From Chloroflexota bacterium (lineage in GTDB: Bacteria > Chloroflexota > Dehalococcoidia > Bin125), in NCBI GenBank assembly GCA_028875225.1, contig JAPPFB010000021.1, positions 225,831-289,830 of the forward strand: a stretch of DNA of 64,000 nt, read 5' to 3'. The notes under the pieces were generated by a model. It did not search any database. It saw nothing but the letters and a program-made list of their open reading frames with translations, and had not been told where the DNA came from. Both the position numbers and the translations under genes were made by a program. Positions 25,606 to 48,100 of the stretch are shown piece by piece (the first letter of the stretch is position 1; every line of letters starts with the position of its first letter).

Positions 25606-25642
25606 CCGTCCACACTCCGCGAGGACAGAGGGGAAGACGATC

Positions 25643-25885: not shown

Positions 25886-26241
25886 CTGAGAGCGTTCAGC
25901 TTCTCGATGAATCGCTCGACATGGGCGAGATAGAGGGCAACCGTCTCGTTGTCCAGCCAGCCTTCATAGAAGTTCATATGCAGGTCGTTGGCATTGCCAA
26001 AGTAGGTGCGCATCTCGTCGTCGTCAGCTTCCCGCGCAAGTTCTTGCACCACCTGCCGAAGCTGGTAATGCGACGCATGATTGAGCCCGCGAGTCGTCGC
26101 GACGGCTTTCACCGAGACGGCCGCAGCACCCCAGCCCTTCTCGGATGCCTGCGTCAGGTCGCCCTCCGACAGGTATGCCCGCGCCCGGCGCAGATATTCT
26201 GAGCTCAGGTCCTCGTAGCGTTCAAGTCTTGGCGTCGTCAT
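25882..26241 (-). CDS. HEPN-like (PaREP1-type) domain protein
   Basis: ...QASEKGWGAAAVSVKAVATTRG...SHYQL...LHMNFYEGW resembles the PaREP1/HEPN family (recalled from memory; PaREP1 identity unverified); ATG at 26241. Confidence 0.45.
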   Translation of the reverse strand: MTTPRLERYEDLSSEYLRRARAYLSEGDLTQASEKGWGAAAVSVKAVATTRGLNHASHYQLRQVVQELAREADDDEMRTYFGNANDLHMNFYEGWLDNETVALYLAHVERFIEKLNALS

Positions 26242-26323
26242 GGCGCGAGCGTAGCAACAAAATTCGCACATACGCCCAGAAAGGAAACGAGCGGCGTTTG
26301 CGCTCAGGAACGTCAGCCCCCAT

Positions 26324-27058: not shown

Positions 27059-27118
27059 CCCCTTCACATCCGCATTCGGCCCGAACCATGCAACCGGCCG
27101 GGCCAGGGAGACTGAGAC

Positions 27119-29996: not shown

Positions 29997-32231
29997 ATGG
30001 TTGGGGGTGCTGCGGTGACAAGATCGGCTGACTCCAAACGCCAAACCAGCGCAACGTCGACAAGCAAGCGCGTTTCGGCCCTGGCTATCCCTGCCTGGTT
30101 GCCGTTGGGCGGCATCCTACTCGTCTCCGGCGCCGAGACCGTCCGGGTAACCGGCGCGCACCGCGAACTCTTTTTCAACATCGATCACTTCTGGGTGCTG
30201 TACATGCTGCTCCCGTTCGTGATCGGGATCATCATCTACGGCCTGGTCCGACGCTCTCGCGTCTGGCGATTGGGCAAACCGACGTCGCTGCTGAAGGGCA
30301 ATTTCGACAACCTGCCCGTCAGAATCGGCCGGTTGGTCAAGGGCGGTGGCGGTACCGAGCGCGTCCTCCTCGACCCGTACTCGGGCGTCATGCACCTCTG
30401 CATCATGACCTCGATGATCGTCCTCTTCCTCGTCACCGCGCTACTCGCCATCGACGACTACATTCCCGTCGACATCCTCGTCGGACCGCGCTACCTCGGC
30501 TACTCGCTGGTCGCCGACATCTTCGGCCTCGTCGGCATCATCGGCGTCGCGATGGCGGTTGCTCATCGCTGGGTCCGGCCGCGAACGGCCTGGCTGCCGA
30601 CCTGGGAGGATTGGCTGATCCTCGGCGGCCTCGGCATGCTGTTGATCACCGGCTTCATCGTCGAGGGTCTGCGCATCCACACCTCCGAGATCGACGTCAA
30701 CCCGGAATGGTCCTACTGGTCGCCGGTCGGCTACATCGTGGCCCTGATGTTCTCAGGTGTGAAAGTCTCCGCCGCGCTCGACATCCACACCACGTTCTGG
30801 TGGATCCACATGGTCGGCGCGCTCTCCTGGATCACCCTGCTCGGCTATTCCAAGCTCAACCACCTCGTTCTCGCGCCGGCCAACGCCTTCCTCAAGCGCA
30901 CTTCGGCCCCGGGCAAACTCGACATGATCGAGAACATCGAGGAGCAGGAGCACTTCGGCGTCTCCCAGCTCGAGCACTTCACGATGAAGCAGATCTTCGA
31001 GCTCGACGTCTGCGTGCGCTGCGGCCGCTGCACGGACAACTGTCCCGCAGATATCGCCGGCCAGCCGCTCTCGCCGATGCACATCATCCAGGACCTCAAG
31101 TCCTACGCGACCGCCGTCGGCGAACAGAAAGTGGCCAATCTCGTCCAGGGCAACGACCTCAACTTCGGCCTCGACGATGAAGCGCCGATGGTCGGAGGCG
31201 TCGTCCGCGACGAATCGCTCTGGGCCTGCCGCACCTGCGGCGCCTGCGTCGAGGCGTGTCCTGTCTTCATCGAGCACGTGCCCACCATCGTCGACATGCG
31301 CCGCTCTCTCGTCATGGAAGAGGCACGCATGCCCGACACCGTCCAGGGCACGCTGGAGACGCTCGAGCGTCAGGGTCACCCCTGGCGCGGAACGCCCTAC
31401 ACCCGCGACTCCTGGATGGAGGGCATCGAAGACCAGATCCCCGAGTGGACCGGCGAGCAAGACTACCTCTACTTCGTCGGCTGCACCGGCGCATTCGTCG
31501 ACCGCGCCCAGGAGATCACCCGCTCCGTCGTCTCACTGCTGCGCGAGGCCGACGTCTCGTTCGGCGTCATCAAGGGCATGGAGTCCTGCAACGGCGATCC
31601 GGCCCGCCGACTCGGCCACGAGTACCTCTACCAGATCCTCGCCGAGGGTCTGATCGAACTGTTCAACGAAACCGGCGTCAACGACGAGCAGAAGACCGTC
31701 ATCACGCACTGCCCGCACTGCTTCAACACATTCCTCAACGAATATCCCGACATGGGCGCGAAATTCCAGGTCATCCATCACACCCAGCTCCTGGAACAAC
31801 TCGTCAACGAGGGCCGATTGGTCCCGAACAACGAGGTCCCCAAACAGACCATCACCTACCACGACAGTTGCTACCTGGGCCGCCACAACGACATCTTCGA
31901 GGCCCCGCGACGCATCCTTGAGCAGGTGCCCAACGTGACCCTGATTGAGATGCCGCGCAACCGCGAGCAGGGCCTCTGCTGCGGCGCTGGCGGCGGCAAC
32001 ATGTGGATGGAAGAGCAGGGCAAGAGCCGCGTCAACGAGGTCCGGGTTGAGGAGGCAGTCGCAACCGGCGCCGAGGCCGCCTGCACCGCCTGCCCCTTCT
32101 GCATTCAGATGTTCGACTCCGGCATCGGAACCGTGCAACTCGACGTCGAAGACGACGACAAGCTCAAAGTCCTCGATGTCGCGGAGTTACTTCAGGCGGC
32201 AGCGGTCACCGAGAATCACAACGCTGTCTAG
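29997..32231 (+). CDS. membrane-bound Fe-S oxidoreductase: N-terminal polytopic (cytochrome-b/NarI-like) domain fused to 2x[4Fe-4S] ferredoxin and two CCG (HdrD/GlpC-like) domains; candidate ETF:quinone oxidoreductase
   Basis: 5-6 TM helices; CVRCGRCTDNCP and CRTCGACVEACP ferredoxin motifs; ...CTGAF... and CCGAGGGNMW CCG motifs; immediately upstream of etfBA. Confidence 0.8.
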   Translation: MVGGAAVTRSADSKRQTSATSTSKRVSALAIPAWLPLGGILLVSGAETVRVTGAHRELFFNIDHFWVLYMLLPFVIGIIIYGLVRRSRVWRLGKPTSLLKGNFDNLPVRIGRLVKGGGGTERVLLDPYSGVMHLCIMTSMIVLFLVTALLAIDDYIPVDILVGPRYLGYSLVADIFGLVGIIGVAMAVAHRWVRPRTAWLPTWEDWLILGGLGMLLITGFIVEGLRIHTSEIDVNPEWSYWSPVGYIVALMFSGVKVSAALDIHTTFWWIHMVGALSWITLLGYSKLNHLVLAPANAFLKRTSAPGKLDMIENIEEQEHFGVSQLEHFTMKQIFELDVCVRCGRCTDNCPADIAGQPLSPMHIIQDLKSYATAVGEQKVANLVQGNDLNFGLDDEAPMVGGVVRDESLWACRTCGACVEACPVFIEHVPTIVDMRRSLVMEEARMPDTVQGTLETLERQGHPWRGTPYTRDSWMEGIEDQIPEWTGEQDYLYFVGCTGAFVDRAQEITRSVVSLLREADVSFGVIKGMESCNGDPARRLGHEYLYQILAEGLIELFNETGVNDEQKTVITHCPHCFNTFLNEYPDMGAKFQVIHHTQLLEQLVNEGRLVPNNEVPKQTITYHDSCYLGRHNDIFEAPRRILEQVPNVTLIEMPRNREQGLCCGAGGGNMWMEEQGKSRVNEVRVEEAVATGAEAACTACPFCIQMFDSGIGTVQLDVEDDDKLKVLDVAELLQAAAVTENHNAV

Positions 32232-32251
32232 ACTGAGTACTGGAGTGACGA

Positions 32252-32593
32252 ATGGCAACACCTGAGCCCGAGCCAACCGCTCGCGAAATCGCGCAGCGAA
32301 CCCGCTCGCGCTTGCCCAGTTCACTAACGGGCAGCGAGCGGCGCATTTCGGATGTTCTGGTTGATGCTCTCGCTCCCGAATTCCATTCCCTCCATCGCCG
32401 AATCGGCGGTGTCGAGCAACGCTTGAGTGAGCGCATCGACGGCGTCGAGCAACAGCTGAACGGGCGGATCGACGCACTCGATGCCAAGATTGATCGCCTG
32501 GGAGAGCACGTGATCAACCGGCTCGGCGATATGGACGCCAAACTTGACCGGTTACTCAGCAGAACTGACAACGGTCAATCGCCAAGCAGCTAG
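32252..32593 (+). CDS. hypothetical coiled-coil protein with about 11-residue repeats
   Basis: RIDGVEQQLNGRIDALDAKIDRLGEHVINRLGDMDAKLDRL. Confidence 0.45.
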   Translation: MATPEPEPTAREIAQRTRSRLPSSLTGSERRISDVLVDALAPEFHSLHRRIGGVEQRLSERIDGVEQQLNGRIDALDAKIDRLGEHVINRLGDMDAKLDRLLSRTDNGQSPSS

Positions 32594-32741
32594 GCGTTGG
32601 ACGGGCTCGAGGGCGTCAATCTGTATCCCATCTGACTGCCCAGCTACCTTGGGCGCGACACAATGCGCAATTGGACGCGCGACCTGATTCCCGTCCGCTC
32701 GTGGTTACTTCGAGCTCATTTTCCCAGTCAGTGAGGAACCG

Positions 32742-33545
32742 ATGGATGTCATCGTCTGCGTGAAGCAGATTCCCGACCCCGAAACGCCCGCCGCCGCCTT
32801 CAAGGTGGATGAGGCGGCCATGCAGGTGTTGCCCGCCCAGGGCATCTCGCCTGTTATCTCCCCCTTCGACGCCCAGGCCGTCGAGGCCGCGCTGCGGATC
32901 AAGGACGCCTCCGGCGATGGCACGGTCAACATCATCTCGCTCGGGCCCGACTCGGCCCGCGACGCGATCAAGCACTCGCTCGCGATGGGCGCCGACGAGG
33001 GCTACCACCTCAAGGACGACGCCTTCGAGGGTGGCGATGCCTGGACTACGGCGCTGGCCCTGTCTAAAGCGATCCAGCACCTGGGCGTCCCCGATGTCCT
33101 GATCTTCGGCCGCCAGGCGGCCGACTGGGACCAGGGCACGGTGGGCAGCATCGTCGCTGAGCTGCTCGACCTGCCTTCCGCGACCGTCCTGCGCGCGGTC
33201 GAGCTCAATGGAGGCAGCATCACCGTCTCGCGCGTCGTCGCCGACGGCTTCGAGAACATCGACCTGCCCACGCCCTGCGTGCTGACCATCTCCAATGAGT
33301 TCGGCGATCCGCGCTACCCGCAGCTCCGCCAGATCATGCAGGCTGCGAGAAAGCAGGTCACTGAGCTGACCGCCTCCGACCTCGGTCTCGACCCCTCCGA
33401 AGTCGGAGCCGCCGGCTCGCGCGTCCAGATGCACGCGCTGTTCCAGCCGACCAGTGACGTCGAGGTCGAAATCATCGAGGGCGACACTCCCGAAGAAAAG
33501 GCCGCCGGCCTGGTCAACGCCCTGCGCGAAGCGAAGATTCTCTAG
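32742..33545 (+). CDS. etfB: electron transfer flavoprotein beta subunit
   Basis: MDVIVCVKQIPD... typical EtfB N-terminus and length. Confidence 0.9.
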   Translation: MDVIVCVKQIPDPETPAAAFKVDEAAMQVLPAQGISPVISPFDAQAVEAALRIKDASGDGTVNIISLGPDSARDAIKHSLAMGADEGYHLKDDAFEGGDAWTTALALSKAIQHLGVPDVLIFGRQAADWDQGTVGSIVAELLDLPSATVLRAVELNGGSITVSRVVADGFENIDLPTPCVLTISNEFGDPRYPQLRQIMQAARKQVTELTASDLGLDPSEVGAAGSRVQMHALFQPTSDVEVEIIEGDTPEEKAAGLVNALREAKIL

Positions 33546-33555
33546 CCCCACATTC

Positions 33556-33603
33556 CTTCTCCCCCCTCTGGGGGGAGATGCCGAAGGCAGAGGGGGGTGC
33601 CCT
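33556..33603 (+). repeat. REP-like structured repeat, copy C
   Basis: cttctcccccctctggggggagatgccgaaggcagaggggggtgcc between etfB and etfA. Confidence 0.8.
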
Positions 33604-33631
33604 CGCTGCCTAGCAAGTTAGGAACCTTGAA

Positions 33632-34606
33632 ATGGCCTCCATCCTCGTCTTTGGCGAAACCGACGACACCGGCCTCACCGCCCCGACCCTCGAGATGCTG
33701 GGCGCGGCGTCGCGACTCAGCGGTGACCTCGGTGGCGGAGTCGCCCTCGCCCTGCTCGGCTCGGGGCTGTCCGGCGCCGCGGCGGCGGCCGGACCAGCCG
33801 GCGCCGACACCGTCTACACCGCCGATTCGGACGCGCTCGCCTCGTACCAGACCGATAGTTACCTGCCGGTTGCTCAGGCGATCGTCGAGCAGGATTCCCC
33901 CTCGGTCGTGCTGATGTCCCAGTCGAGCATGGGCCGCGACCTCGCCCCGCGTCTTGCCACTCGACTCGGCACCGCCGCGATCATGGATTCGCTCGGACTC
34001 GAAGTCGACGGCGATCGGGTCAAGGCCACCCGAAGCTGCTACGGCGGCAATGCCCGACAGGTCGTCACCGTCCAGACCGACCCTCAGGTGATCACCGTCC
34101 GGCCCAAATCGCAAGACCCGCTTGAAGCGGATTCCTCTCGATCAGCCGAAGTGGTTGCCGTTAACGTGGCGGAGCCCACCCTGCGCGCTCGAACAACCGG
34201 CAAAGAGCAGGCCGAGTCAGAAGGCATCCGCCTCGAAGACGCCGAGATCGTCGTGTCCGGCGGCCGCGGGTTGGGCGGACCGGAGGCCTTTGCCGACCTG
34301 GAAAGCCTCGCTGGCGTGCTTACCGCTGCTGTCGGCTCTTCGCGCGCCGCCTGCGACCTCGGCTGGTACCCGCCGTCGCAACAGGTCGGACTCACCGGCA
34401 CGGTCGTCTCGCCGACGCTCTACATGGCCATCGCCATCTCCGGCGCCAGTCAGCACATGGCCGGTTGCGGCGGCTCGAAGAACATCGTCGCGATCAACAA
34501 GGATCCCGACGCGCCCATCTTCAGCTTCTCCCGCTTCGGCATCGTCGACGACTACAAGAAGGTCCTGCCCGCCCTCGAAGCCGCCTTCGCCAAGGCGCTC
34601 GACTAA
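33632..34606 (+). CDS. etfA: electron transfer flavoprotein alpha subunit
   Basis: FAD-binding C-terminal motifs PTLYMAIAISGASQHMAG...IVAINKDPDAPIF. Confidence 0.9.
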   Translation: MASILVFGETDDTGLTAPTLEMLGAASRLSGDLGGGVALALLGSGLSGAAAAAGPAGADTVYTADSDALASYQTDSYLPVAQAIVEQDSPSVVLMSQSSMGRDLAPRLATRLGTAAIMDSLGLEVDGDRVKATRSCYGGNARQVVTVQTDPQVITVRPKSQDPLEADSSRSAEVVAVNVAEPTLRARTTGKEQAESEGIRLEDAEIVVSGGRGLGGPEAFADLESLAGVLTAAVGSSRAACDLGWYPPSQQVGLTGTVVSPTLYMAIAISGASQHMAGCGGSKNIVAINKDPDAPIFSFSRFGIVDDYKKVLPALEAAFAKALD

Positions 34607-35180: not shown

Positions 35181-35565
35181 CGGGGCTCCTCGCAGGCGCA
35201 GTGAACTGTGTCGTTCGGAGTGCGCGGTGGTTGCGGAAGACGCCGGAGGCGTTGCCCCGACATCTCCCCACATCGTGATGGCGGACGCGCACCGACATGT
35301 TCAGGCGGCATCCGCAAAATCGTCAACTGATTGTTAACCCTAGCAATCTGGTCAGAGGCGCCCTGCTGACCGTGACACAGTTCGCACTCAGGTCACGCGT
35401 GGCGCGGCGTTTGCCTGGTTGGCGCGTCGGTTGACCACTCCAACGCCCGCCAATAGTCTGTGGACTCAGCGTGCGTCCGCGAGGCCGGTTGTCCTTCCCT
35501 CGGTGAACGGTCAGTTGGTTAGAGGCGGTTGGACGACGCGACACATGCGGAGACGCACACCGATC

Positions 35566-36162
35566 ATGCGCTCGATTGGACTCACCGGCGGAATTGCCTC
35601 TGGCAAGTCGACCGTCGTCAAACAGCTCCAGGAGCTCGGCGCCGCCACCATCGATGCCGACATTCTCGGCCACCAGACCTACGAACCGGGTACCGAGACC
35701 TTCAACCAGGTCGTGGCGGCCTTCGGCGAAGACCTCGTCGCCGAAGACGGCACCATCGACCGAAGCAAGCTCGGTCCCAAGGTGTTCGGCCACCCCGACG
35801 GGATGAAGCGCCTGACCGATATCGTCTGGCCCGGCATCCGCGCCCTGGCCGAGACGGAGCTGGAGCGTCTGGCGGCCAACGGCACGGCCGTCGCCGTGCT
35901 TGAGGCCGCCGTCATGATCGAAGCCGGCTGGCAGGACCTCGTTGATGAGGTCTGGGTCGTCGCGGTCAGTCGTGACACGGCCCGTGAGCGTCTTATGGCC
36001 CGCAACAACTTCACCGCCGAGGAAGCGGACAAACGAATCGACTCTCAGATCACCAACGACGAGCGGCTCAAGCACGCCGACGTGATGATCTCCAACGACT
36101 GCAGCATGGATGTCGCCGCCGAGCGCGTCGCCCGCGCCTGGGCCGGTATGCAGTCCAGATAG
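35566..36162 (+). CDS. coaE: dephospho-CoA kinase
   Basis: MRSIGLTGGIASGKST P-loop; ORF-track N-terminal extension rejected. Confidence 0.85.
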   Translation: MRSIGLTGGIASGKSTVVKQLQELGAATIDADILGHQTYEPGTETFNQVVAAFGEDLVAEDGTIDRSKLGPKVFGHPDGMKRLTDIVWPGIRALAETELERLAANGTAVAVLEAAVMIEAGWQDLVDEVWVVAVSRDTARERLMARNNFTAEEADKRIDSQITNDERLKHADVMISNDCSMDVAAERVARAWAGMQSR

Positions 36163-36248
36163 CGTCGAGCAATAGGCTGGAACCAGACACCACCATCACC
36201 ACTTGTGCACACACTCGCCGCTGACGATGCGGCAGAGCGGGAGAGCGT

Positions 36249-37148
36249 TTGATGACTACTGCCACCGAAGCGATCACCGAATACCGTAGCTGGGCTGTCG
36301 AGGAATTCCGCGCCGAAGAAGAGCCGTACTACGTGCCCGTCGCGGACGAGATTGAGGTCTTCGAGGCCGCCTGGAACAGCAAGATTCCCGTCCTCCTCAA
36401 GGGCCCGACTGGCTGCGGCAAGACTCGTTTTGTTGAGTACATGGCGTATCACCTCAACCGCCCCTTGGCCGTCGTTCGCGACGGCCGGACCGAGATTGAG
36501 GATGAGACCAACCTGCCGCTCGTGACCGTCGCCTGCCACGAAGACCTGACCGCCTCCGACCTCGTCGGCCGCTACCTGCTCGAGGGCAACGAGACCGTCT
36601 GGATCGACGGCCCGCTGACACGCGCCGTCAAGGCCGGCGCGATCTGCTACCTCGACGAGGTGGTCGAAGCGCGAAAAGACACCACCGTCCTCATCCACCC
36701 GCTGACCGACCACCGACGCATCCTGCCCGTCGAGAAAAAGTCGCAGCTCCTCCAGGCCCGCGACGGGTTCCTGCTGGTGATCTCCTTCAACCCCGGCTAC
36801 CAGTCGGCGCTCAAGGACCTCAAGCAGTCGACCCGCCAGCGCTTCATCGCCGTCGAGTTCGACTACCCGCCGCGCGAAACCGAGGCCGAAATCGTCCAGC
36901 ACGAATCCGGCTGCGACCCCGATGTCGCCCTCAACCTGGCCAAGATGGCCGAGAAGATTCGCAACCTGCGAGAACACGGCTTGGCCGAGGGCGCCTCGAC
37001 GCGCCTGCTGATCTACGCCGGCCGAATGATCGCCGAGGGCGTTTCGCCGCGCCGCGCCTGCCAGGTTTCGATCGTCTGGCCGCTGACCGATGACGGCGAA
37101 GTCCAGCGCTCGATCGAGGAAGTCGTCTCCTCAATCTTCGAGGACTAG
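36249..37148 (+). CDS. CbbQ/NorQ/NirQ-type MoxR AAA+ ATPase
   Basis: Walker A GPTGCGKT, Walker B YLDEVVEA, about 300 aa single AAA+ module. Confidence 0.85.
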
Positions 37149-37166
37149 GACCGAGCAGACCTCCCA

Positions 37167-37742
37167 GTGCGGATCGGCATCGTCTCGGACATCCACTGCA
37201 ACGCGGCGGCGCTTGATCGCGCCGTCGAGCAGATGGGTGACATCGACGAACTGCTCTGCGCCGGTGACGCCTGTTACCAGTACCGATTCTCCAACGACGT
37301 CGCCGAACGCCTGCGACAGCTCGGCGGACGCTACGTGCTCGGCAACCACGAGGAAATCCTGCTCTCCGAGGCCGGCGCTCGCGCCCAGGCTTCGCCCAGC
37401 GTCGACAAATCGCTGCTCGAGTGGACTCGCGCACAGCCCTTTCTCCTGCGCACCGAGATCGGCTCGAAGAAGCTGCTCATGTTCCACGCGACCCCATGGG
37501 CGCCGTATCGCGACTATCTCTTCCCCCACGACCCGCAACTCCAGCGTCTGGCCGAGGAAGAGGCCGATTTCATCATCTACGGCCACACCCACGCGCCGCT
37601 GGTCAAGCGGATCGGCCCTGCCCTGATCGTCAACCCCGGCTCGGCCGGAGAGATGCGGGGCACTGAACAGGTCCTGACCTATGCTGTGCTCGATACGTCC
37701 GACGATCACGCCGAGATCCACGAGATTCGCTTCAACGATTGA
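37167..37742 (+). CDS. calcineurin-like metallophosphoesterase (YfcE-type)
   Basis: GIVSDIHCN, GD..., GNHE, IYGHTH motifs. Confidence 0.8.
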   Translation: MRIGIVSDIHCNAAALDRAVEQMGDIDELLCAGDACYQYRFSNDVAERLRQLGGRYVLGNHEEILLSEAGARAQASPSVDKSLLEWTRAQPFLLRTEIGSKKLLMFHATPWAPYRDYLFPHDPQLQRLAEEEADFIIYGHTHAPLVKRIGPALIVNPGSAGEMRGTEQVLTYAVLDTSDDHAEIHEIRFND

Positions 37743-37748
37743 TGACAT

Positions 37749-37795
37749 CTCCTCTCCCCCCTCTGGGGGGAGATGCCGAAGGTAGAGGGGGGCGC
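37749..37795 (+). repeat. REP-like structured repeat, copy D
   Basis: ctcctctcccccctctggggggagatgccgaaggtagaggggggcgc; translated as false N-terminus in ORF-track start 37739. Confidence 0.8.
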
Positions 37796-37831
37796 TCACC
37801 AGCCCGGAAGCCCCCACGAAACGAGACGCCC

Positions 37832-40800
37832 ATGACCGCACAACTGATCGAAGAGGCCCGCGAGGGATTGCGCCAGTTCCCGCCCGCCCTGGCCCAGGAA
37901 TTCGAGGCGGCGGTCGAAGCGGCCCAGCCGATCCTCGAGCCCGACGAACTCGGCCAATGGCTGCGCGACGGCCTCGACATCGCCCGTCATTCCTTGCGTA
38001 GTTGGGAAGCCTCCTCCGAGTACTTCCGCGCTTCGGGCCCGGTGCTGGAGCAGATCACTTACGACCAGATGCGTGAATGGTGCGCCGTCGGTATTGACTT
38101 AATGGAGACCTCACCGGCCCTCTCGGGCGCCCTCTTCCGCGCCTCGCCCGCCGTGTTGCCGCATCTCTCGGTGACGCAGGCCAACGACTGGGCCGCCCAG
38201 GGCAAATCGCTCTACAAGGGAACCTGGAAGTCCGGATCCCTCTCGGCCCAGTACTTCGATGTCTCACCTCAGATTCTTCCCCACCTGCCGCTCTCTCAGA
38301 TGCGGCTCCTGGTCGATCTGATCGACTCGCTCGCCTCGCATTCCTACGAACTGGCCTCGGCCTGCCTCGGCATGGCGCCGGGTGTCCTCGCGCAACTCGA
38401 CCGCGCTGACCGCGCGCCGTTCCTCGAGTTCGGCGGCATCGTCGCGCACACCGCCTGGGTCGACGCTCGCGTCTACTTTGAGCGTGGACCCGGTGCCCTG
38501 CGCCAGGTCTCAGATGAGCAGCGGCCTCGCTACCTCTCCCTGGCCGGACAGGTGGCCATGCAGGTCGGACGCCTTGGCCATCCCTACTTCATCGAGGCCG
38601 CCCAGGCCTTCTCCGAGGTCGACAAGGACATCCACGAGGGCCTGCTCGAACTGGCCGAACAGCTCGCCCAGCACTCCGGCGACGCCGCCATGGAGTTCAT
38701 CAAGTCCTCGCCCCGTGTGGCCCAGCGCCTCGGCATCGACGACATCGCCCGCTGGCAGGAGTTCGGACTGCAGATTCTTCAGCAGTCGCGCGACGGCGGC
38801 GAGGCTTTCTTCCGCCTCGAATCCGCCCGCGGCGAGGAAGTCATGGAGGCGCTCAGCAGCCGAGTTGACCTCGACCGCGTCTCCGAACTCATCCGCATGT
38901 ACTGCAAGGCTCTGACCGGCGTTGATGTCGGCGTGAAAGCCTCTGAGGAGTTGACCGCCAAGGGCGTCGGCTGGGTCGACGAAAGCAGCCCAACCACCGA
39001 GGGCACCACGATTTATCTGCCCGAGAACGTCGAACGTTACCCGACGAAGGAAGAGAACTTCTCGGTCTACAAGGTCTTCGCCACCCACCAGGCCGGACGC
39101 CTGGAATTTGGCTCGTTCGAGTACCAGTCGGAACTCGATCCGAACCTGTTCCCTGCGGCTCAGAACGGTTCCTCGAACGGTCACGGCAACGGGGTCGTTC
39201 CGACCGTCGTCGAAGAAGAAGAACAGATCCACACCGACATGGAGCTGTTCTTCGACCGCTTCGACGACCGGCGCCTGGCGCACGACCTGTTCACGATCGT
39301 CGAGGACACGCGAATCGACACGATCGTCAAACGCGAATATGCCGGCGTGCGCCGCGCCTTTTCGCGTCTCCAGCAGGCCGCCATCGACCGCCGCCGGCCC
39401 GTCGAGGACATGCCTGCCCGCCAGGCGATGGTTGAAAATCTGCTGCGCGCCTCGCTCGACGAGATTGGTCGTATCCGCTGGCCCAACGAACTGGCCGAAG
39501 AAATGCGCACCCCGCTGCGGATCCTTAACCGCATCCGCAGCGAAGGCGCGACCGTCCAGGACAGCGCCGCCGCCACCGCGTTGCTCTACGAGTGGCTCTC
39601 GCAGATTCCCAACGTCGAACTCGACACTGAAGACTGGTCCGACTTCGAACAGGAAATGTCGGGCGACCCGGACGGCGGCGAAGACTCCGACATGATGCCC
39701 GGTTCCGGTTCATCCGGGCTCGAAGAGTCCTTCATGCCCTTCATGCCCGGCTCCGAGGAGCAACCCTACGACAGCCCCGATCCGGTCGACTTCCGCGGCG
39801 ACTTCAAGCCCGAACTCGTCCAGTTGCTGATGAAGCTCAAGGGCGAAACTGGCACCGGCGACGCCCCGCCAATCCCGCTGACCAAGGAACAGCTCCAGGA
39901 ACTGCTGGAGAAGTCGGTCGAGATCTCGATCAATGAGCTGATGGACATGGACCTGGCCGAGTCGTCGGGCATGTTCCTCGACAACCTGCTCAAGGAAGTC
40001 AACCAGATCCAGGGCGAGCGCCAGGAGGGCCAGCAGGCCATGGGCGACGACTCCACCGGCGCCGACGACGGTGAGGAACTGCCGGTCGAAGCCGCGTCGT
40101 TCTACTACGACGAGTGGGACTTCCGCGCTGCCGACTACAAGCCGCGCTGGTGCCGCGTGCAAGAACAACGCGGCGAATCTGGCACGTCCAACTACTACAC
40201 CGAGACCCTGCACGAGCACACACAGCTCGTCCAGGAGACCCGCAAACAGTTCGAGATGCTGCGGCCCGAGATGTTCCGCAAGATGAAGCGCCTGACCGAC
40301 GGCGAGGACTACGACCTCGACGCCGTGATCGAGTGGTACACCGAGAAGATTGCCGGCGCGACCTCCGAGACCAAGCTCTTCTATCGCCGCAACAAGGTCG
40401 ACCGCGACGTCGCCGTCGCCTTCCTGCTCGATGTCTCCGCCTCAACCGACGAGGAGATCCAGAAGCACCACGACCAGCGCCAGGACGACCAGTTCGACGA
40501 CGACCCGCGCAAGTACCTGAGCTGGTGGGCCCAGCGCCGCGCCGAGGCCGCCCGACACCCCGGCAAGCGGATCATCGATCTCGAGAAAGAGGCCACCGTC
40601 CTGTTAATCGAGGCGCTCGAGACCATCGGCGACAAGTACGGCGTCTACGGCTTCTCCGGCTACGGCCGCGACAACGTCGAGTTCTTCGTCTATAAGGACA
40701 TGGACGAGCCCTTCGGCGACCGGATCAAGGAGCGCATCGACAAGATCGCTCCCGTCCGCTCGACCCGCATGGGCCCCGCCATCCGACACTGCATCTGGAA

Positions 40801-41092
40801 GCTGCAGAACACCGACGCCAAGGTCAAGATCCTGATGTTGCTCTCCGACGGGCGTCCGCAGGACCACGGCTACGGCCGCGACCGCACCGAGAAGGAATAC
40901 GCGATCCACGACACCAAGATGGCGCTCACCGAGGCGCGCCGCGAGGGCATGGTCCCGTTCGCCCTGACCGTCGACCGGGCCGGCCACGATTACCTCAAGC
41001 AGATGTGCCAGGACATGGCGTACGAGGTCGTCGCCGACATCGAGTCCCTCCCACGCCGCCTCCCCGCCCTCTACCGCCGCCTCACCGGCTAG
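37832..41092 (+). CDS. giant CbbO/NorD-like protein with C-terminal von Willebrand factor A (MIDAS) domain
   Basis: C-terminal VAFLLDVSAST (DxSxS MIDAS); N-terminal repeated SP.(V/I)LPHL motifs; acidic linker; ATG 37832. Confidence 0.75.
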   Translation: MTAQLIEEAREGLRQFPPALAQEFEAAVEAAQPILEPDELGQWLRDGLDIARHSLRSWEASSEYFRASGPVLEQITYDQMREWCAVGIDLMETSPALSGALFRASPAVLPHLSVTQANDWAAQGKSLYKGTWKSGSLSAQYFDVSPQILPHLPLSQMRLLVDLIDSLASHSYELASACLGMAPGVLAQLDRADRAPFLEFGGIVAHTAWVDARVYFERGPGALRQVSDEQRPRYLSLAGQVAMQVGRLGHPYFIEAAQAFSEVDKDIHEGLLELAEQLAQHSGDAAMEFIKSSPRVAQRLGIDDIARWQEFGLQILQQSRDGGEAFFRLESARGEEVMEALSSRVDLDRVSELIRMYCKALTGVDVGVKASEELTAKGVGWVDESSPTTEGTTIYLPENVERYPTKEENFSVYKVFATHQAGRLEFGSFEYQSELDPNLFPAAQNGSSNGHGNGVVPTVVEEEEQIHTDMELFFDRFDDRRLAHDLFTIVEDTRIDTIVKREYAGVRRAFSRLQQAAIDRRRPVEDMPARQAMVENLLRASLDEIGRIRWPNELAEEMRTPLRILNRIRSEGATVQDSAAATALLYEWLSQIPNVELDTEDWSDFEQEMSGDPDGGEDSDMMPGSGSSGLEESFMPFMPGSEEQPYDSPDPVDFRGDFKPELVQLLMKLKGETGTGDAPPIPLTKEQLQELLEKSVEISINELMDMDLAESSGMFLDNLLKEVNQIQGERQEGQQAMGDDSTGADDGEELPVEAASFYYDEWDFRAADYKPRWCRVQEQRGESGTSNYYTETLHEHTQLVQETRKQFEMLRPEMFRKMKRLTDGEDYDLDAVIEWYTEKIAGATSETKLFYRRNKVDRDVAVAFLLDVSASTDEEIQKHHDQRQDDQFDDDPRKYLSWWAQRRAEAARHPGKRIIDLEKEATVLLIEALETIGDKYGVYGFSGYGRDNVEFFVYKDMDEPFGDRIKERIDKIAPVRSTRMGPAIRHCIWKLQNTDAKVKILMLLSDGRPQDHGYGRDRTEKEYAIHDTKMALTEARREGMVPFALTVDRAGHDYLKQMCQDMAYEVVADIESLPRRLPALYRRLTG

Positions 41093-41100
41093 CAATCAAG

Positions 41101-41146
41101 ACCTCCCCCTCTGGGGGAGGTGCCGCGAAGCGGCGGAGGGGGCCGC
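41101..41146 (+). repeat. REP-like structured repeat, copy E (hairpin 2 re-paired as GCCGC-GAA-GCGGC)
   Basis: acctccccctctgggggaggtgccgcgaagcggcggagggggccgc. Confidence 0.75.
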
Positions 41147-41164
41147 TCCGGCTACCATGACCGC

Positions 41165-41509
41165 ATGTCATTCCTCGCCGCCACCCTGACCACCGCGGGC
41201 ATCGCCGCCGCCTTCGTCGCGACCCTGATCGGTCGTGAATCGCTCAGCCTCTACATCGTCTGTGCCGTGGTTGCCGCCGCCGGCCTCCTCCTGATGCTGC
41301 TGCACATCGCCCGACGCCGCCGCGACGCCGCTCCCTGGTACGCGCTCGCGCCCATGGCGATCGTCGTGGCGCTGCTCGGAGTGGCCGCCTCCGGAGCCAC
41401 TTGCGGAGTCGCCTGCATCGCCTGGGGCAGCCCGGTTGCCGCCGCAACCCTCGTCATCCCCGACATCCGCGGCTGGTTCGACCGCAAGCGACCGCTCAAA
41501 CGCGTCTAG
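41165..41509 (+). CDS. small hypothetical membrane protein
   Basis: 3 hydrophobic helices; ATG 41165 after repeat copy E. Confidence 0.45.
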   Translation: MSFLAATLTTAGIAAAFVATLIGRESLSLYIVCAVVAAAGLLLMLLHIARRRRDAAPWYALAPMAIVVALLGVAASGATCGVACIAWGSPVAAATLVIPDIRGWFDRKRPLKRV

Positions 41510-44500
41510 TTCGTCAGCCGCAGCTCGCGATTCAGCTCCAGCTTCAGGAACCAGCGCCAGGTCGCCAGCACGCCGACCACCAGCACTCCGATCAGTACGG
41601 CAAACGCGATCCCCAGGATCTGCCAGTCCGTCTCAATCTGGAAGGGCGGCAACACGGTGCGCCCGTTCTCGTCGATCTCCAGGTAGCCCAACAGCAACAG
41701 CGAGATCCGGTTGCCCAATAGCACGCCGAGCACCAGACCCGTGCCCACGATGATCGCGTACTCGAAAAACAGCTGGATCAGAATGCTCACGTTGCCCACC
41801 CCGACCGTACGCAACAACGCCATCTCCAGCCGCCGCTGACGCGCCGACACCGCCATCGACACCAGAAACGCCAGCGCCAACAGCAGCGAGATCGCGATGA
41901 AGGCCACCAGCAGAATCCCGGAGCCGCCCGCGGTGGTCAGTGGATCGCGTCCGCTGTCGTCAAGCCGCTGTTCGCGGTCGAAGAATGTGCCCAACGAATA
42001 GCGTGGACGCCTCAGTTCCTCTTTGGCCGCCTCACGCAGCGCCGGATCCTCTGCCAGGTCCAGCCATACCTCCGTCGGCGTCACCGTCGGGCGCAGCGCC
42101 GTCACCGATCCCATGTGGAACAGCGCGTCGTAGTCGGCCACGATGAATGACAGGACATCCGGGCGTAGCGTCGGGAACAGCTCCACGATGCTGGCCACGC
42201 GAGCCGTGATCACGACCGTATCGAGGCGCAGTGGATAGCGGTCACCGACGTCGAGGCGTTGCCGCTCGGCGAAGTCGGCGCTGACGATCGTGGGCAGCGT
42301 GCATCGGGTGTTGGTGCAGAACGACGGATCGGCAAAGTGCGCGGCGCGAAGTCCCGGCGATTGGCCGACTCCTGGCCGAAACGCCATGACGTACTCACCC
42401 GAAATCGGATCCTCGTCGCGCTCGAACTCAATCTCGTCGCCGGTGCCGCGTCTCTGGACGAACTCCAGCCAACGTCGATTCTCGAAATCCTCAATGATCA
42501 GCTCGCGTCCGTCCGGTTGAATCGCCGTCACCGCGTCGAAGTACACCGTGGCCGGCTCCGACACGAATAGACCAAACGGTTCACTCATGGTGATCGCATG
42601 CAGCGAATACGGTGGCGCCGCCCCCGAGCCGACGATCTCATTTTGGAAATCGATGTCGATTGCGGTCCAGGGACTCTCGGCGGCCGGCATCTCGAGTCCG
42701 CCGGCCGTGATGTACCGGCCGTCACCATCGCGCACACGCAGCCAGAATGATTGATCCGTCTCGCCCTCGCCCATCCGGACCCAGACCCGAAGCGTCTCGG
42801 TCTCCTCGGGAATGCCGACCCCGCGTCCGACAGGCGGCACATCGATCGCGCCGATCAACTCCTCAAACGTCAGTAACGACATGTCCTCGCGGAACCACAT
42901 CATCTCGACGGCGGCCTTCGGCTCGAGACCCAGGATCGTCACACTCGTGGTCGTTCCAACGCTGCGGCCCGCCGACACTTTGCTCCGATGAATCGAGGCA
43001 ATGCCCTCGACGCCCTCAATTGGCCCCAGTCGATCACGCACTCCGTTGGCGCTCGAATACCCGCTCTCTCCCAGCTCGACCCTGAACTCCACCCCGTTGT
43101 CGTATTCGATTCGTTCCTCGAGCGAGAGCTCGACCGTATCCGCGTACGAGGCCGCGAACGTGCCAAGCGCGGCGCCAAGCATCAGCAGGATGGTGAGGCG
43201 CGCCGCCGGGCCAACCGTGCGGCTGACGTACCGCAGCGTGGACGCGATCGACAGCGGGAACCGGTCGTAGGTCAGCCACGCGAAGAATCGATACAGATAC
43301 GGCAAGAATCGCAGAATCACCAGCGTCGCCGCCAGCGCGAACAGGATCGGGGTGCTCAACAACAATGGATCAGCCGAGAGTCCGCCCACGCTGTCCCGTT
43401 CAAACACGGTGCCCTTCAGATCCGCTTCGAAGATCAGGCCGACGGCCACGAAGACGAGTGCGACATCCAGGAAGTAACGCTGCAGCGCATTCGGACCGGC
43501 CGGACGCGACACGCCGCGCAGCCGTTCCGACAGCACCCGCGTACGACTCGCGATTACCAGCGGCGCCAGGGTGAACAGCACCGCCACGATCGCCCCCGCT
43601 GCCGAGAGCAGGAACGCCATGTCGGTCAGCGTCGTCGGAATCGTCTCCCCGCCGGTCAACGGTTCAAAGACCGGCGTGAAGCCAAGCAATCCGATCACGC
43701 CCATCGAAATGAACGGGGCCACCGCCGCCGCGACGATCGCGAGCAGAATTCCCTCGATCGCCGTATGCGAGATCACCTGAACGATCGATGCGCCGCGTGA
43801 ACGCATCGAAAACAGTTCTTCTCGACGCTGCGCGACCTGCACTCCCGACACGATCACTACATAGAACAGCGCGATCCCGACCACCTGCGCCAGCAACATC
43901 AGGATCGGTACCTGCGTGAAGTTCAAGTCCTTGACGAACGATTCCAGGCGCGGTTCGATCGGCGAACGCAGCGATGCTCCCACCGATCGCAGATCGGCGC
44001 GCAATAGGTCGAACGACTCCCGCGTATCGTCGAGCACCGCCACGTTCAGTTGGTCGGTGTCCAACTCCGAGATCCACATGGTGTTGAGCAGATATCCGCT
44101 CATCACTCGCGAGAGCGTGCTGTCGAACGTCTGCGAGGGAATGATTAGCGGAGCCGTGATTGGCCGAGCTGGTCCCGAATACACGCCGAACGTGATCTCG
44201 CGCGGTACCCGCGTCCAGTAGGAACTGACCGTGTTGTCGGGTTCCACGATCCCCGTGACCACGACGGGGATCAATCGCGTGATCGCCATGGTCGGCTCGC
44301 ACGGTGGTCGCGGAGGTGGGGGCGGTCCTCCGGGCGGAGGATCGGGTTCGCGGTCGCACTCGTCGTATCCGTCGATGATCTGCCATTCCGACCCCACCCC
44401 TACCCCGAACATCGCCGACCCACGCGGCGTGATGGCGACTTCAATCGGAGCGTCGAGCCAACCGGACTCGTTCAACTCCGGCGGACGCGGAAACCGCCCT

Positions 44501-44925
44501 TCGACCACATTGACGTTGTCCTCGGCCTCGTCCAGTGCGGCGAAGAACGCAGTCGTCGGGAACACCTGGCTCGGCCTCAGCGGGAAGTTGATCTCCGACG
44601 GCACGGTCGTCCGAAAACGCAAGCGTCGCGTCTCGAGATCGCCGAAACGGTCGCCAATTGAATCACTCGTGTAGTTGCGGGCAGACTCGTTTGGCCCGCC
44701 GGCGATCGGCAGTCCGTTGAGGAACGTAAACATCTGCCGACGTTCGGTCAGATCCTCACGCAAGCTGACGGTCAGTGACAGGTCGGACACGGCGCGCGTA
44801 TAGATCGTGGTCGAGGACATCAGCACGGCCGCAACCAGGATCCCTGCCGCGATCACCAATTGCAGCCGCCAGCTATCGCGCATGCGACGCAACACGAACC
44901 CCAGGACGGCGCCGAACGACTCCAC
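41506..44925 (-). CDS. giant FtsX-domain ABC-type permease (two FtsX/MacB-like permease modules), paralog 1
   Basis: 1139 aa, N-terminal TM then large extracytoplasmic region, repeated 4-TM FtsX-like blocks. Confidence 0.75.
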   Translation of the reverse strand: MESFGAVLGFVLRRMRDSWRLQLVIAAGILVAAVLMSSTTIYTRAVSDLSLTVSLREDLTERRQMFTFLNGLPIAGGPNESARNYTSDSIGDRFGDLETRRLRFRTTVPSEINFPLRPSQVFPTTAFFAALDEAEDNVNVVEGRFPRPPELNESGWLDAPIEVAITPRGSAMFGVGVGSEWQIIDGYDECDREPDPPPGGPPPPPRPPCEPTMAITRLIPVVVTGIVEPDNTVSSYWTRVPREITFGVYSGPARPITAPLIIPSQTFDSTLSRVMSGYLLNTMWISELDTDQLNVAVLDDTRESFDLLRADLRSVGASLRSPIEPRLESFVKDLNFTQVPILMLLAQVVGIALFYVVIVSGVQVAQRREELFSMRSRGASIVQVISHTAIEGILLAIVAAAVAPFISMGVIGLLGFTPVFEPLTGGETIPTTLTDMAFLLSAAGAIVAVLFTLAPLVIASRTRVLSERLRGVSRPAGPNALQRYFLDVALVFVAVGLIFEADLKGTVFERDSVGGLSADPLLLSTPILFALAATLVILRFLPYLYRFFAWLTYDRFPLSIASTLRYVSRTVGPAARLTILLMLGAALGTFAASYADTVELSLEERIEYDNGVEFRVELGESGYSSANGVRDRLGPIEGVEGIASIHRSKVSAGRSVGTTTSVTILGLEPKAAVEMMWFREDMSLLTFEELIGAIDVPPVGRGVGIPEETETLRVWVRMGEGETDQSFWLRVRDGDGRYITAGGLEMPAAESPWTAIDIDFQNEIVGSGAAPPYSLHAITMSEPFGLFVSEPATVYFDAVTAIQPDGRELIIEDFENRRWLEFVQRRGTGDEIEFERDEDPISGEYVMAFRPGVGQSPGLRAAHFADPSFCTNTRCTLPTIVSADFAERQRLDVGDRYPLRLDTVVITARVASIVELFPTLRPDVLSFIVADYDALFHMGSVTALRPTVTPTEVWLDLAEDPALREAAKEELRRPRYSLGTFFDREQRLDDSGRDPLTTAGGSGILLVAFIAISLLLALAFLVSMAVSARQRRLEMALLRTVGVGNVSILIQLFFEYAIIVGTGLVLGVLLGNRISLLLLGYLEIDENGRTVLPPFQIETDWQILGIAFAVLIGVLVVGVLATWRWFLKLELNRELRLTN

Positions 44926-45103: not shown

Positions 45104-48100
45104 ATGGGCGACATCTTCAGCTCGTTCCCCACGGCCTTCCGAATCGCGGTTCGGCGTCTCAACGGCAACCGTCGGCTGATGGCTGCCGTCGCCGTCGGCG
45201 TGATCCTCGCCGTGGCGCTGATGGCGTCCACGACGATCTACCGCAACGCGCTCCAGGACCTCGGTCTGCAGACTGACCTGCGCCGAGTCTCCGACGCCGA
45301 GCTCGACGTTCGCATCCTCAACGCCGCCCACGGGCTCTCCAGCGGCCTGGCCGATCAATCGTTCGAAGTGATTGATCGCCGGCTCAGAATCCCCCGCGAC
45401 TACATCTCTGAGACGAACCACTCGCTCACGACCGCCACCTTCTTTATGACCGCGGTGGGCGAAACGCCACCGGACGAAGATCCGCGTGATCGTGCCCGTG
45501 TGCTCTGGTTTGAAGGCATCCGCGACCATATTGAACTCGTCGATGGCCAATGGCCCGATCCGACTCCCGCCGCTACCCCTGACGAACCGCCAATAGTCGA
45601 TGTCGCGATGGGAACCGAGGCGGCCGCCTCGGGCGGCTTCAGCCTCGGCCAAATCCGGGACATCCATGCCTCCTGGCGAGACGATGCGCGACCGATCCAG
45701 ATCCGCGTCGTCGGACTCGTCCGGCCCATCGACTACAACGACCGCTACTGGGGCGTGCGCCGCGACCATTTCCACGTGCCGGTCGAGAAAACCGACGCGT
45801 TCGCATTCTTCGCGCCCAGGTCCACGCTAATCGACGCCATGGCCGGCTACATGCCCGAGCTGCGCGCCAGGCTGGAGGCCTACGCGCAGGTGGATCGATC
45901 GGCCTTTGTCGCTGACGACGCCGGCCTGGCCGCGATTCGCTTCCGCGCCGCCTTTGAGGCCATCGCCAAGGAGATCGAGCGAACCCGCGTCGAGACCGAG
46001 ATCGTCAACGTCCTCAACGACTACGAGACCAAGGAGTTTTTCTCCTCGATCCCGCTGCTCGTGTTGACCCTCCAGATCGTGGGGATCGTGCTCTTCTATC
46101 TGGTGCTCGTCTCCACCATGGTGGTCGACCGTCAGTCCGGAGAAGTCGCGTTGCTCAAGTCGCGCGGGGCCGGACTGGGACACATCATGTCGATCTCGAC
46201 GATCGAGGGACTGCTGCTGGTCGCGCTTGCCTTGGGAGTGGGACCGTTCGTCGCGCGCGAAGCGATTGCCTTCCTGGGCTACTCGCCCGCCTTCGAGGGG
46301 CTAACCGGAGGCGCGCGGCTATCGGTGGAATTGACCGGCGAGGTCTACATCTATGCCGCGATCGGCGCCGCCTTGAGCTTCATCGCCCTGATCTGGCCGG
46401 CCTGGCGATCCAATCGCAGCACCGTCGTACATCATGCGCGTTCCACCTCGCGACCCGAGGACAAACCGGTGTTCCAGCGCTACTACCTCGACCTCGTGGT
46501 CGTCGGAGTTGGCGCCCTGCTCTTCTTCCAGTTGCAGGAATCCGGGTCACTGGTCACCGAGGACCTCTTCGGCGGTCTGCAGCAGGACCCGCTGTTACTC
46601 ATCGCCCCCGCCGTGTTTGTCGTCACCGTGGCGGTCCTGTTCCTGCGCCTCTTCCCGCTGTTGCTCTCTGCCTTCGGCGGTGTTGCTCGCCTGCTCGGCG
46701 GCGCTTCGACGCAAATGGTCCTCTGGCATCTGACCCGCGCGCCCGTCCAGCCCGGTCGCCTTGCGCTGCTGCTGATCATGGCGACGTCGCTGGGCATGTT
46801 CGGCGGAACCTTCGGCGCCACGCTCGACAAGTCATTCGACGATCGAGCCGCCTACCGATCGGGAGCGCCGATGCGGCTGGCCGACTTGCGCAGCAGCGGC
46901 GCATCCGCGGACATGTTGGCGGCCGATCTCGCCAATGCCCCCGGCATCGGCAGAATCTCCTATGTCATCCGACAGAATGCCTCGTTCTCTCGCGGGCCGC
47001 TCGATGTGACCGACGCCTCCGTGCTCGGAGTGGATCCCGACTCGTTCGGCGACGTGCTCTGGTACCGCGACGACTTCGCACTTGACGATGTCCGCGAACT
47101 GATCGATCGGGTCACCGCGCCCGAATTTGAGGTCGAGCAGATCGTGATCCCCGCCGACGCCACCTATGTCGGTATGTGGCTCTGGTTACCCGACACCAGC
47201 GGGTCCATCGGCCCCAGCTTGAGGATGCGCGACGGCCAGGGACGCTATCGGGATGTCCGGCTGATCGGTCTGCCGCGAAGCCGCGGGTTCGGCGGCGGTG
47301 AACTCGAAGAAGGTTGGAGATTCCTCTACGGCAATCTCACAGAAGGTACCGGCGCACCGCACGTCGGTCCTTGGACCGTGCAGAACATCTCGATTCGCAC
47401 TGGCGGCAATGCCAATTTCTCTGGCGAGGTCGGCTATGACTCGCTTCAGTACACCACCGAAGCAGCACTGCCCGACGACGTCATCAATCTCGGGTTCCGT
47501 GAAGGCGTGATCGTCGAAAGCTTCGAAGAGCAGGGGCGTTGGACCGTGTTCACCGACACGACGCGCGCCGGCGCGCTCCCGGATGACGCCCGGCTCTCGC
47601 CCGACCAGGCCCGCGACGGCGAGTTCGGCATGCGCTATCGCTGGAATCGCGAAGTGCGTTCCGGCTTGCCTCGCGGGGTGCGGCTGATAGGCCCCGACGC
47701 CGCATTGCCGGTGATCGTGAGTCGGGATTTCCTCACGGAAGCGGCGCTTGACGAGGGCCAGCTTGCCCTGGTCGGCATGGCCGGCGTCTACATACCGATG
47801 CAGATCGTCGGCGCATTCGATCTCTTCCCCACCTGGGACCCAGAGGACGCCCGTTCGCTCATCATCGCCAACCGCGACTATCTCAACTATCGGATCAACC
47901 GAAACCCCGCCACCCTCGGCGCTGGCTCCCCCAACGAGATCTGGATCCAGCCGACCGACGACGATGGGTTGCGGCAACTGCGAACCTTCCTCGAGGTCAC
48001 CCCTCCCTGGAAACACGACCTGTACGATGTCGACGCCATTCGCAACTTGCAGGACGAGGACCCGCTCGTCGCCGCCGGTTGGGAAGGCCTGCTCTTCCTC

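Follow-up and report, generated by a model that had tools for sequence, protein, structure and literature searches.

An AAA+ ATPase gene of the CbbQ/NorQ type, a calcineurin-like metallophosphoesterase (MPE) gene and the gene of a giant VWA protein stand in a row in a 64,000-nucleotide stretch of DNA from a Chloroflexota bacterium (GenBank assembly GCA_028875225.1, contig JAPPFB010000021.1, positions 225,831 to 289,830 of the forward strand). The whole stretch is hereafter called the window; its G+C content is 62–68%. The question raised by the locus is which client the AAA+/VWA pair serves, and what the hydrolase encoded between its two members has to do with that client. The original prediction, made from the sequence alone, held that the pair matures or activates the MPE or, alternatively, that the three genes form an unrecognised stress or defence module. 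The trio was found here to belong to a four-gene, Chloroflexota-wide operon, coaE-Q-X-D, in which Q is the AAA+ ATPase, D the long VWA protein and X a facultative phosphohydrolase. X is a YfcE-type MPE in the window's clade, a NUDIX protein of the coenzyme A (CoA) diphosphatase type in the SAR202 clade, and is absent in others.

The coaE-Q-X-D operon

All three open reading frames (ORFs) of the trio were present on the + strand, and the short spacers foreseen for them (18–90 bp) were recovered, at 18 bp between the AAA+ and MPE genes and 89 bp between the MPE and VWA genes. The start of Q was placed at ATG 36252, backed by an exact match to NCBI protein MDE2746712, and the MPE is an exact match to MDE2746713. 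The start of D was placed at ATG 37832 and not at the upstream TTG 37739, on the evidence of an exact NCBI match (MDE2746714) and of homologue alignment; the longer TTG-initiated reading crosses a repeated intergenic element and has no homologue support. The features of the locus are as follows.

35566..36162, + strand: coaE (dephospho-CoA kinase); likely start ATG 35566, longest ORF from 35419
36252..37148, + strand: Q, CbbQ/NorQ-type single-module MoxR AAA+ ATPase, 298 aa (Pfam AAA_5 and CbbQ_C, PDB matches)
37167..37742, + strand: YfcE-type calcineurin-like MPE, 191 aa, GTG start (Metallophos_2, TIGR00040)
37748..37795, + strand: repetitive extragenic palindrome (REP)-like G/C-run hairpin repeat in the MPE-VWA spacer (pattern search)
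37832..41092, + strand: D, large NorD-like VWA protein, 1086 aa (NorD profile match; MIDAS, short for metal ion-dependent adhesion site)
37832..38821, + strand: D residues 1–330, helical-repeat (alpha-solenoid) domain with SPxVLPHL-like repeats (AlphaFold2 [AF2], Foldseek)
38834..39667, + strand: D residues 335–612, second conserved alpha/beta domain (invariant columns, AF2)
39668..40111, + strand: D residues 613–760, acidic, mostly disordered linker (composition, predicted local distance difference test [pLDDT])
40112..41092, + strand: D residues 761–1086, NorD-homologous 'finger' region and VWA domain (profile, Foldseek)
41098..41148, + strand: REP-like G/C-run hairpin repeat, 3' of the VWA stop codon (pattern search)

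Homologous loci were collected from genomes (80), from metagenomes (80) and by exact protein look-up (4), neighbouring genes were mapped with tblastn, and 130 loci, each with at least 2.2 kb of upstream sequence, were taken as informative. The order coaE-AAA-MPE-VWA was found in 58/130 loci, which answers the question posed by the original prediction of whether the AAA+/phosphoesterase/VWA order recurs. The order coaE-AAA-NUDIX-VWA was found in 49/130, coaE-AAA-VWA with no middle gene in 11/130 and the VWA gene alone in 11/130, the remaining locus (1/130) being disrupted. Q and D are thus directly next to each other in 11 loci, parted by an MPE or NUDIX gene in 107 and without linkage in 11. 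Wherever the AAA+ gene adjoins the VWA gene (118/118 loci), coaE lies immediately 5' of the AAA+ gene; coaE, which the original prediction overlooked, is the most constant partner of the cassette.

Judged by its gene gaps, the arrangement is operon-like. Between coaE and the AAA+ gene the median gap is ~5 bp for loci of the NUDIX clade and ~76 bp for those of the MPE clade; from the AAA+ gene to the middle gene it is ~21 bp in both, and the gap from the middle gene to the VWA gene is ~-23 bp (an overlap) in the NUDIX clade, as against ~+85 bp in the other. Within the SAR202-clade cassette, genes overlap at their stop and start codons. The D proteins of the MPE and NUDIX clades are colinear, with 42% identity over 1106 columns that include the whole N-terminal region, as against 71% identity between the window's Q and its SAR202-clade orthologue. 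In a crude neighbour-joining tree of the VWA proteins the MPE state and the NUDIX state each occupy one major clade (6 changes by Fitch parsimony), the lineages with no X or with unlinked Q and D stand beside the MPE clade, and two losses of the middle gene fall inside the NUDIX clade.

Species genomes with homologous loci numbered at least 437, metagenome stretches at least 550. Named records are from Chloroflexota, Dehalococcoidia, SAR202, Tepidiformales and Anaerolineaceae, with two exceptions, metagenome-assembled genomes (MAGs) labelled 'Acidobacteriota bacterium' and 'Bacterium'. The cassette is carried by symbionts of sponges, by Chloroflexota of soil and wastewater and by SAR202, an abundant group in the sea; it is single-copy and vertically inherited, in housekeeping synteny (ETF, coaE; ETF, electron transfer flavoprotein). 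The closest related loci are in MAGs labelled Chloroflexota, Chloroflexi or Dehalococcoidia, whose isolate names (IRC, RHO, COS) presumably belong with those of sponge metagenome studies, which they resemble.

A small gene was seen between the AAA+ and MPE genes in five loci (L057, 4919–5387; L066, 1917–2362; L074, 3424–3861; L080, 4850–5354; L076, 4733–5221), several of them in MAGs labelled Tepidiformaceae or Anaerolinea. Its product follows the pattern RFEDLIAWQKAR...ANIAEGFERNR...CAEVRSHLY, which we take to be that of the four-helix-bundle/23S rRNA intervening-sequence protein type. The operon seems to tolerate insertions at the AAA+-MPE junction.

Proteins of the cassette

The coaE product was identified with Pfam CoaE (1.4e-48) and NCBIfam TIGR00152 (159.6 bits against a cut-off of 65.55 bits). 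The AAA+ protein (NCBI name 'CbbQ/NirQ/NorQ/GpvN family protein') was matched by Pfam AAA_5 (1.8e-30) and CbbQ_C (3.8e-31), a single AAA+ module being followed by the CbbQ_C helical domain. Walker A (GPTGCGKT) is encoded at 36402–36425 and Walker B reads ICYLDEV. Against the PDB the best match was CbbQ 5c3c (1.6e-103), with NorQ 9qh4 (8.3e-95) and 9qhd (6e-93) also matched. By these Pfam and PDB matches, which agree with the single-module MoxR-class call made originally, Q is a member of the CbbQ/GvpN/NorQ subfamily of MoxR AAA+ proteins. Its helix-2 insert, read from the sequence, fits the motif GRxLL/IxxxxT, which in the 2026 electron cryo-microscopy structures of NorQD grips the NorD finger (PMC13036017). 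Residues ~68–90 of Q (36450–36520) fall outside the best stretch of the Paracoccus denitrificans NorQ match (query 90–297), are spanned by other NorQ and CbbQ matches in shorter chains, and vary between clades; the segment looks like an insertion in the alignments.

In the MPE, Pfam Metallophos_2 was matched at 9.9e-29 and NCBIfam YfcE TIGR00040 at 64.2 bits, above its 56.25-bit cut-off. Among 67 orthologues, with identities down to 43%, conservation of the motifs DxH, GD, GNHE, H and GHTH is 97% or higher. With the family cut-off passed and all five metal-binding motifs intact, the call of a calcineurin-like dinuclear metallophosphoesterase holds, and the enzyme is, by its motifs, very probably catalytically active. 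Among solved structures, its distant relatives carry the annotation phosphoesterase, phosphodiesterase or uncharacterised. The window's protein is like the YfcE/MJ0936 phosphodiesterases in passing TIGR00040 and keeping their metal-binding motifs, but it differs in its MoxR-VWA operon setting, which is undescribed for this family in the literature searched. We know of no established natural substrate for the YfcE/MJ0936 family, and to our knowledge no dedicated chaperone was used when its characterised members were made and their structures solved.

The NUDIX protein that takes the middle position in the SAR202 clade has a fold unrelated to that of the MPE. Its best NCBIfam match is to the CoA pyrophosphatase PRK10707 (1e-27 to 2e-30) and its best PDB matches are to the Deinococcus radiodurans CoA pyrophosphatase 1nqy and to NUDT7. 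In 69 orthologues both the Nudix box and the CoA-type signature KRSxxxxxHxGExxFPGG are kept, the CoA motif lying upstream of the box as in the NUDIX CoA diphosphatases (NudL/PRK10707, 1nqy, NUDT7). The cassette departs from those enzymes in that the same slot is filled in the window by a non-homologous YfcE-type MPE.

For the 1086-residue D protein (NCBI label 'hypothetical protein'), the Pfam VWA match was marginal (3.5e-5). A 14-member family profile searched against solved NorD chains gave 1.9e-44, profile positions 761–1088 corresponding to NorD residues 355–644. The aligned stretch takes in the finger-containing region, the DxSxS-T-D MIDAS residues and the C-terminal LPxxYRxL tail (LPALYRRLTG in the window); the finger-region alignment covers NorD 355–472, which contains the finger, and the AF2 model of that part is of low confidence. 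LLDVSAST aligns with the DxSxS of NorD, and the MIDAS residues D867, S869, S871, T978 and D1006 are invariant (45/45 sequences). In Foldseek searches with the AF2 model the best fold matches were NorD VWA domains (probability 1.0). The C-terminal VWA/MIDAS domain proposed originally was in this way corroborated by profile, alignment and fold. In NorD the finger inserts into the pore, the C-terminal tail binds NorQ and the MIDAS binds the client. Directly after DxSxS, ~28 profile positions (residues ~873–916, window 40448–40580) are without a NorD counterpart; the insertion holds invariant or near-invariant residues (DDDPRKY..W....KRIID) and may form an extra contact surface beside the MIDAS face.

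The N-terminal ~750 residues of D gave no significant match to solved NorD chains. Residues 1–330 are all helical (pLDDT mostly >90) and retrieved only designed helical repeats in Foldseek; the SPxVLPHL-like motifs noticed earlier were located at residues ~69, 106, 146, 183 and 294, five sites recurring roughly every 37–40 residues. The second domain (residues 335–612, pLDDT ~71–89) carries the motifs THQAxHLEFGSF (THQAGR in the window's clade) and EDTRID...REYxGxR. A Foldseek search of the PDB with a domain-only AF2 model gave nothing significant (top match selecase, E=1.4), and a profile search against PDB sequences gave designed proteins and noise only. Weak, sub-threshold Pfam matches to the CobT N-domain were seen in 4/45 members (best E 0.0041), and the domain may be CobT-N/NorD-N-like. 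At residues ~419–430 (window 39086–39121) an invariant T-H-Q-A is followed in most members by a second His (HQxxH; HQAGR in the window's clade), and HQxxH with the downstream EDxRID resembles a degenerate HExxH zincin motif; selecase, the non-significant top fold match, is a minimal metallopeptidase. The linker that follows (residues 613–760, pLDDT <50) is acidic as had been stated, with 24% Asp+Glu against 5% Lys+Arg.

D was originally estimated to exceed CbbO/NorD by about 300 residues; this extra length is explained by the ~330-residue N-terminal helical repeat, the rest following the NorD plan of N-domain, linker, and finger with VWA domain. Full-length homologues of ~1070–1130 aa are many. 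A search with the N-terminal 623 residues against 1.84 billion representatives returned 1101 clusters at E<=1e-3, those among the matches listed being proteins of ~1000–1100 aa or shorter, apparently partial sequences; neither this search nor Pfam gave a match to the region outside its own family. In a hunt for fusions that might give a clue to the client, one homologue (P0181) carried PAS and HisKA domains and was rejected as it looks like a mis-called chimera. Matches of 700–790 aa, considered as client-revealing forms, look like proteins without the helical repeat or truncated ORFs and were likewise set aside.

What the cassette may do

The reading we prefer, held with about even confidence, is that Q/D is a NorQD/CbbQO-like remodelling chaperone for a client other than the MPE, that it is co-transcribed with enzymes of CoA-type nucleotides, and that the hydrolase is an accessory. 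Because the helix-2 insert motif, finger region, C-terminal tail and MIDAS are conserved in sequence, Q/D most likely works like NorQD and CbbQO. By this homology a Q hexamer would bind one D through the VWA finger and the C-terminal tail, while the MIDAS of D and its family-specific N-terminal region (helical repeat and second domain) would grip the client protein. ATP hydrolysis would pull on the acidic linker and remodel the client, and a cofactor, metal or tight ligand would enter or leave. According to the literature (PMC9976466), VWA proteins associated with MoxR vary in their N-terminal regions, which determine the specificity for the target. Since this specificity-type region is large, family-specific and colinear across clades in D, the client should be common to all clades; it would be encoded elsewhere and would not be the MPE.

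A role for the accessory enzymes is proposed more weakly. Two phosphohydrolases have come to occupy one slot, one of them CoA-specific by motif, and the operon opens with coaE, which suggests that the product of the middle gene acts on a CoA-type nucleotide. The hydrolase may destroy such a nucleotide (CoA, damaged CoA or its 3',5'-ADP product), and CoaE may supply the final step of CoA resynthesis. The logic of release, degradation and resynthesis, in which a dead-end nucleotide cofactor is freed, degraded and remade, would be that of Rubisco activase with CbbY or of the cofactor reactivases. CbbY is a separate hydrolase that removes an inhibitory sugar phosphate; the hydrolase here is of the MPE or NUDIX family and not, as CbbY is, of the HAD family.

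Several points weigh against the preferred reading. No client was identified, and the Q/D mechanism is drawn from homology to NorQD/CbbQO. AF2 confidence is low for the VWA part of D, so that the alignment is the main ground for the MIDAS call. The link to CoA consists of gene order and family assignment; the SAR202-clade NUDIX proteins score under the NCBIfam curated equivalog cut-off of 134 bits, and coaE, a housekeeping gene, is possibly a neighbour for reasons of expression only. In the tree, MPE and NUDIX each mark what is essentially a single clade, X-less clades lying between the two, and the argument from a shared slot therefore amounts to two acquisition events and not many; the two clades were moreover sampled from different collections with different queries.

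Co-transcription by itself is a possible, if rather doubtful, explanation: coaE and the hydrolase would be housekeeping genes sharing a promoter with Q/D, and Q/D would serve an unrelated client such as a respiratory or other metalloenzyme. It is in keeping with this that X is dispensable in several clades, that D can stand alone, that the flanking genes are those of ordinary metabolism and that other genes, for example that of the four-helix-bundle protein, have been inserted in the operon. The coaE-Q adjacency was nevertheless kept in every one of the 118 loci although the D proteins are only 42% identical between lineages. Two different nucleotide phosphohydrolases were recruited to one slot, one of them with a CoA-specific motif, and the stop/start overlaps of the SAR202 clade also tell against mere neighbourhood.

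A stronger form of the CoA connection, which we put forward tentatively and consider unlikely, is that the whole cassette is a CoA cofactor-repair machine, in which Q/D frees a dead-end or damaged CoA-type nucleotide from a CoA-dependent client, the hydrolase destroys it and CoaE completes the remaking of the cofactor. CoA-dependent enzymes are numerous in these bacteria. If this were true, CoA (or 3',5'-ADP) hydrolases would include a class not known before and outside the NUDIX family, that of the YfcE-type MPE.

The maturation hypothesis of the original prediction, in which Q and D would load or swap the metals of the neighbouring MPE, a di-metal enzyme, now appears improbable. NorQD is itself a metal-insertion factor (PMC13036017), in 58 loci the MPE gene has Q on one side, at a median distance of 21 bp, and D on the other, and the active site of the MPE is conserved. 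Against these points, a NUDIX protein of unrelated fold stands in the slot in 49 loci, and the MPE is absent in 22 more (no middle gene in 11, VWA gene alone in 11). The MPE is an unlikely client of metal insertion because D, including its N-terminal specificity region, is orthologous and colinear across clades whatever fills the middle slot. The literature searched, a Riemerella anatipestifer MoxR ATPase paper aside, names no metallophosphoesterase as the target of a MoxR/VWA pair.

Automated annotation would make the pair a genuine NorQD (cytochrome c nitric oxide reductase [cNOR] maturation) or CbbQO (Rubisco activase), which is very improbable. The similarities are strong for the AAA+ protein, to both CbbQ and NorQ, and extend in D to the NorD VWA domain; JGI names the homologues 'nitric oxide reductase NorD protein'. 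NorD shares with D the plan of an N-terminal domain, a disordered linker and then VWA (AF2; PMC13036017), Q carries the GRxLLxxxxT insert of NorQ, and the last ~330 residues of D align with NorD 355–644. D is however 1086 aa long against ~640 for NorD, with the extra ~330-residue helical repeat, a longer acidic linker and the ~28-position insertion after DxSxS. Some 750 of its residues are without counterpart in solved NorD sequences, and its family-specific N-terminal region is unmatched outside its own family. A hydrolase gene stands between Q and D, coaE precedes them, and no nor, cbb (Rubisco/carboxysome) or cox/carbon monoxide dehydrogenase (CODH) genes turned up in a scan of ~30 window ORFs or on either side of the cassette in four related loci with called genes. 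CbbQ-CbbO (5c3c, 6l1q) offers the best AAA+ match and the precedent of a MoxR/VWA pair that remodels its client to free a tight phosphorylated ligand, but Rubisco genes were missing from the window ORFs scanned and the N-terminal region of D is unrelated to Pfam or PDB sequences. CobS-CobT, the motor of the aerobic cobaltochelatase, likewise pairs a MoxR-type AAA+ protein with a VWA protein that has an acidic linker; here the AAA+ protein carries CbbQ_C, with no CobS-specific domain reported by Pfam, the CobT similarity is sub-threshold and no cobN was seen.

MoxR-vWA cores occur in some conflict systems, and effectors can be phosphoesterases or NUDIX enzymes. The other alternative of the original prediction, here taken as a not yet recognised module on such a core that serves anti-phage defence, conflict or stress, is nevertheless highly unlikely and was rejected because PADLOC gave P-loop noise only (weak matches to IetA and a marginal one to PDC-S10, none for the VWA protein), the cassette being in addition single-copy, vertically inherited and in housekeeping synteny across the whole class, with no mobile-element genes nearby among the window ORFs scanned and the related loci with called genes.

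Surroundings and significance of the cassette

Upstream of coaE, the window holds at 29997–34606 a membrane iron-sulfur protein (NarI-like N-terminus, 4Fe-4S dicluster, two CCG domains), which we take to resemble EtfD, followed by ETF beta and ETF alpha. ETF alpha/beta are conserved near the cassette in two subclades only: the pair, placed upstream of coaE, is kept in the MPE clade and in its X-less sister clade, and not in the SAR202-clade loci with genes listed. In the flanks of the four related loci with called genes nothing was found in common beyond the cassette. Downstream, two giant proteins of 1139 and 1132 aa, whose genes are divergently transcribed (41506–44925, - strand; 45104–48502, + strand), are conserved in close relatives; only a C-terminal FtsX-like permease domain was recognised in them, ~1000 residues of each being unannotated. 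Two CoA-transferases of family III, two enoyl-CoA hydratases and an acyl-CoA synthetase are also encoded in the window (16360–18783, 58389–60104; 24621–28690). Such CoA-heavy metabolism fits reports on SAR202-like Chloroflexota and bears on the CoA proposal as context only.

The repeat in the MPE-VWA spacer is a dispersed intergenic element of ~45 nt with G/C-run hairpins and the core CTCCCCCCTCTGGGGGGAG-ATGCC-GAAGG-CAGAGGGGGG. It was found by reading the spacers and by pattern search; a general DNA repeat search gave chance-level matches only. Four copies are present in the window (33555–33600, 37748–37795, 41098–41148 and 53242–53290, + strand) against 0.23 expected, each downstream of + strand genes. 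The copies originally said to bracket the VWA gene are thus real, but they belong to a dispersed element that is not specific to that gene. The element may act as a terminator or RNA-stability element. It had no match in Rfam, whose search of the entire window was empty at gathering thresholds, and a promoter and terminator scan of 35300–41700 gave nothing informative.

The component families of the cassette are known. Its arrangement, in which a long adaptor carries a helical repeat, coaE is linked and an MPE and a CoA-type NUDIX are interchangeable, is undescribed in the literature searched (CbbQ/NorQ/MoxR in Chloroflexi, SAR202 and Dehalococcoidia, and with metallophosphoesterase). Characterised MoxR/VWA pairs are few (Rubisco, cNOR, CODH, chelatases, RavA-ViaA), and each new client has so far been informative on enzyme maturation or repair. 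A sponge metaproteome study took a NorQ annotation, assigned to Tectomicrobia, as evidence of nitric oxide reduction (PMC6081418); the NorQ/NorD labels on this cassette could in the same way be over-read as denitrification. The linkage of coaE and a CoA-type NUDIX to Q/D is a testable lead that may join an AAA+ remodeller to CoA metabolism. Experiments may be feasible, since relatives occur in MAGs assigned to Tepidiformaceae/Tepidiformales, an order with cultured members. The cassette is a widespread, experimentally approachable MoxR/VWA system with an unexpected CoA connection.

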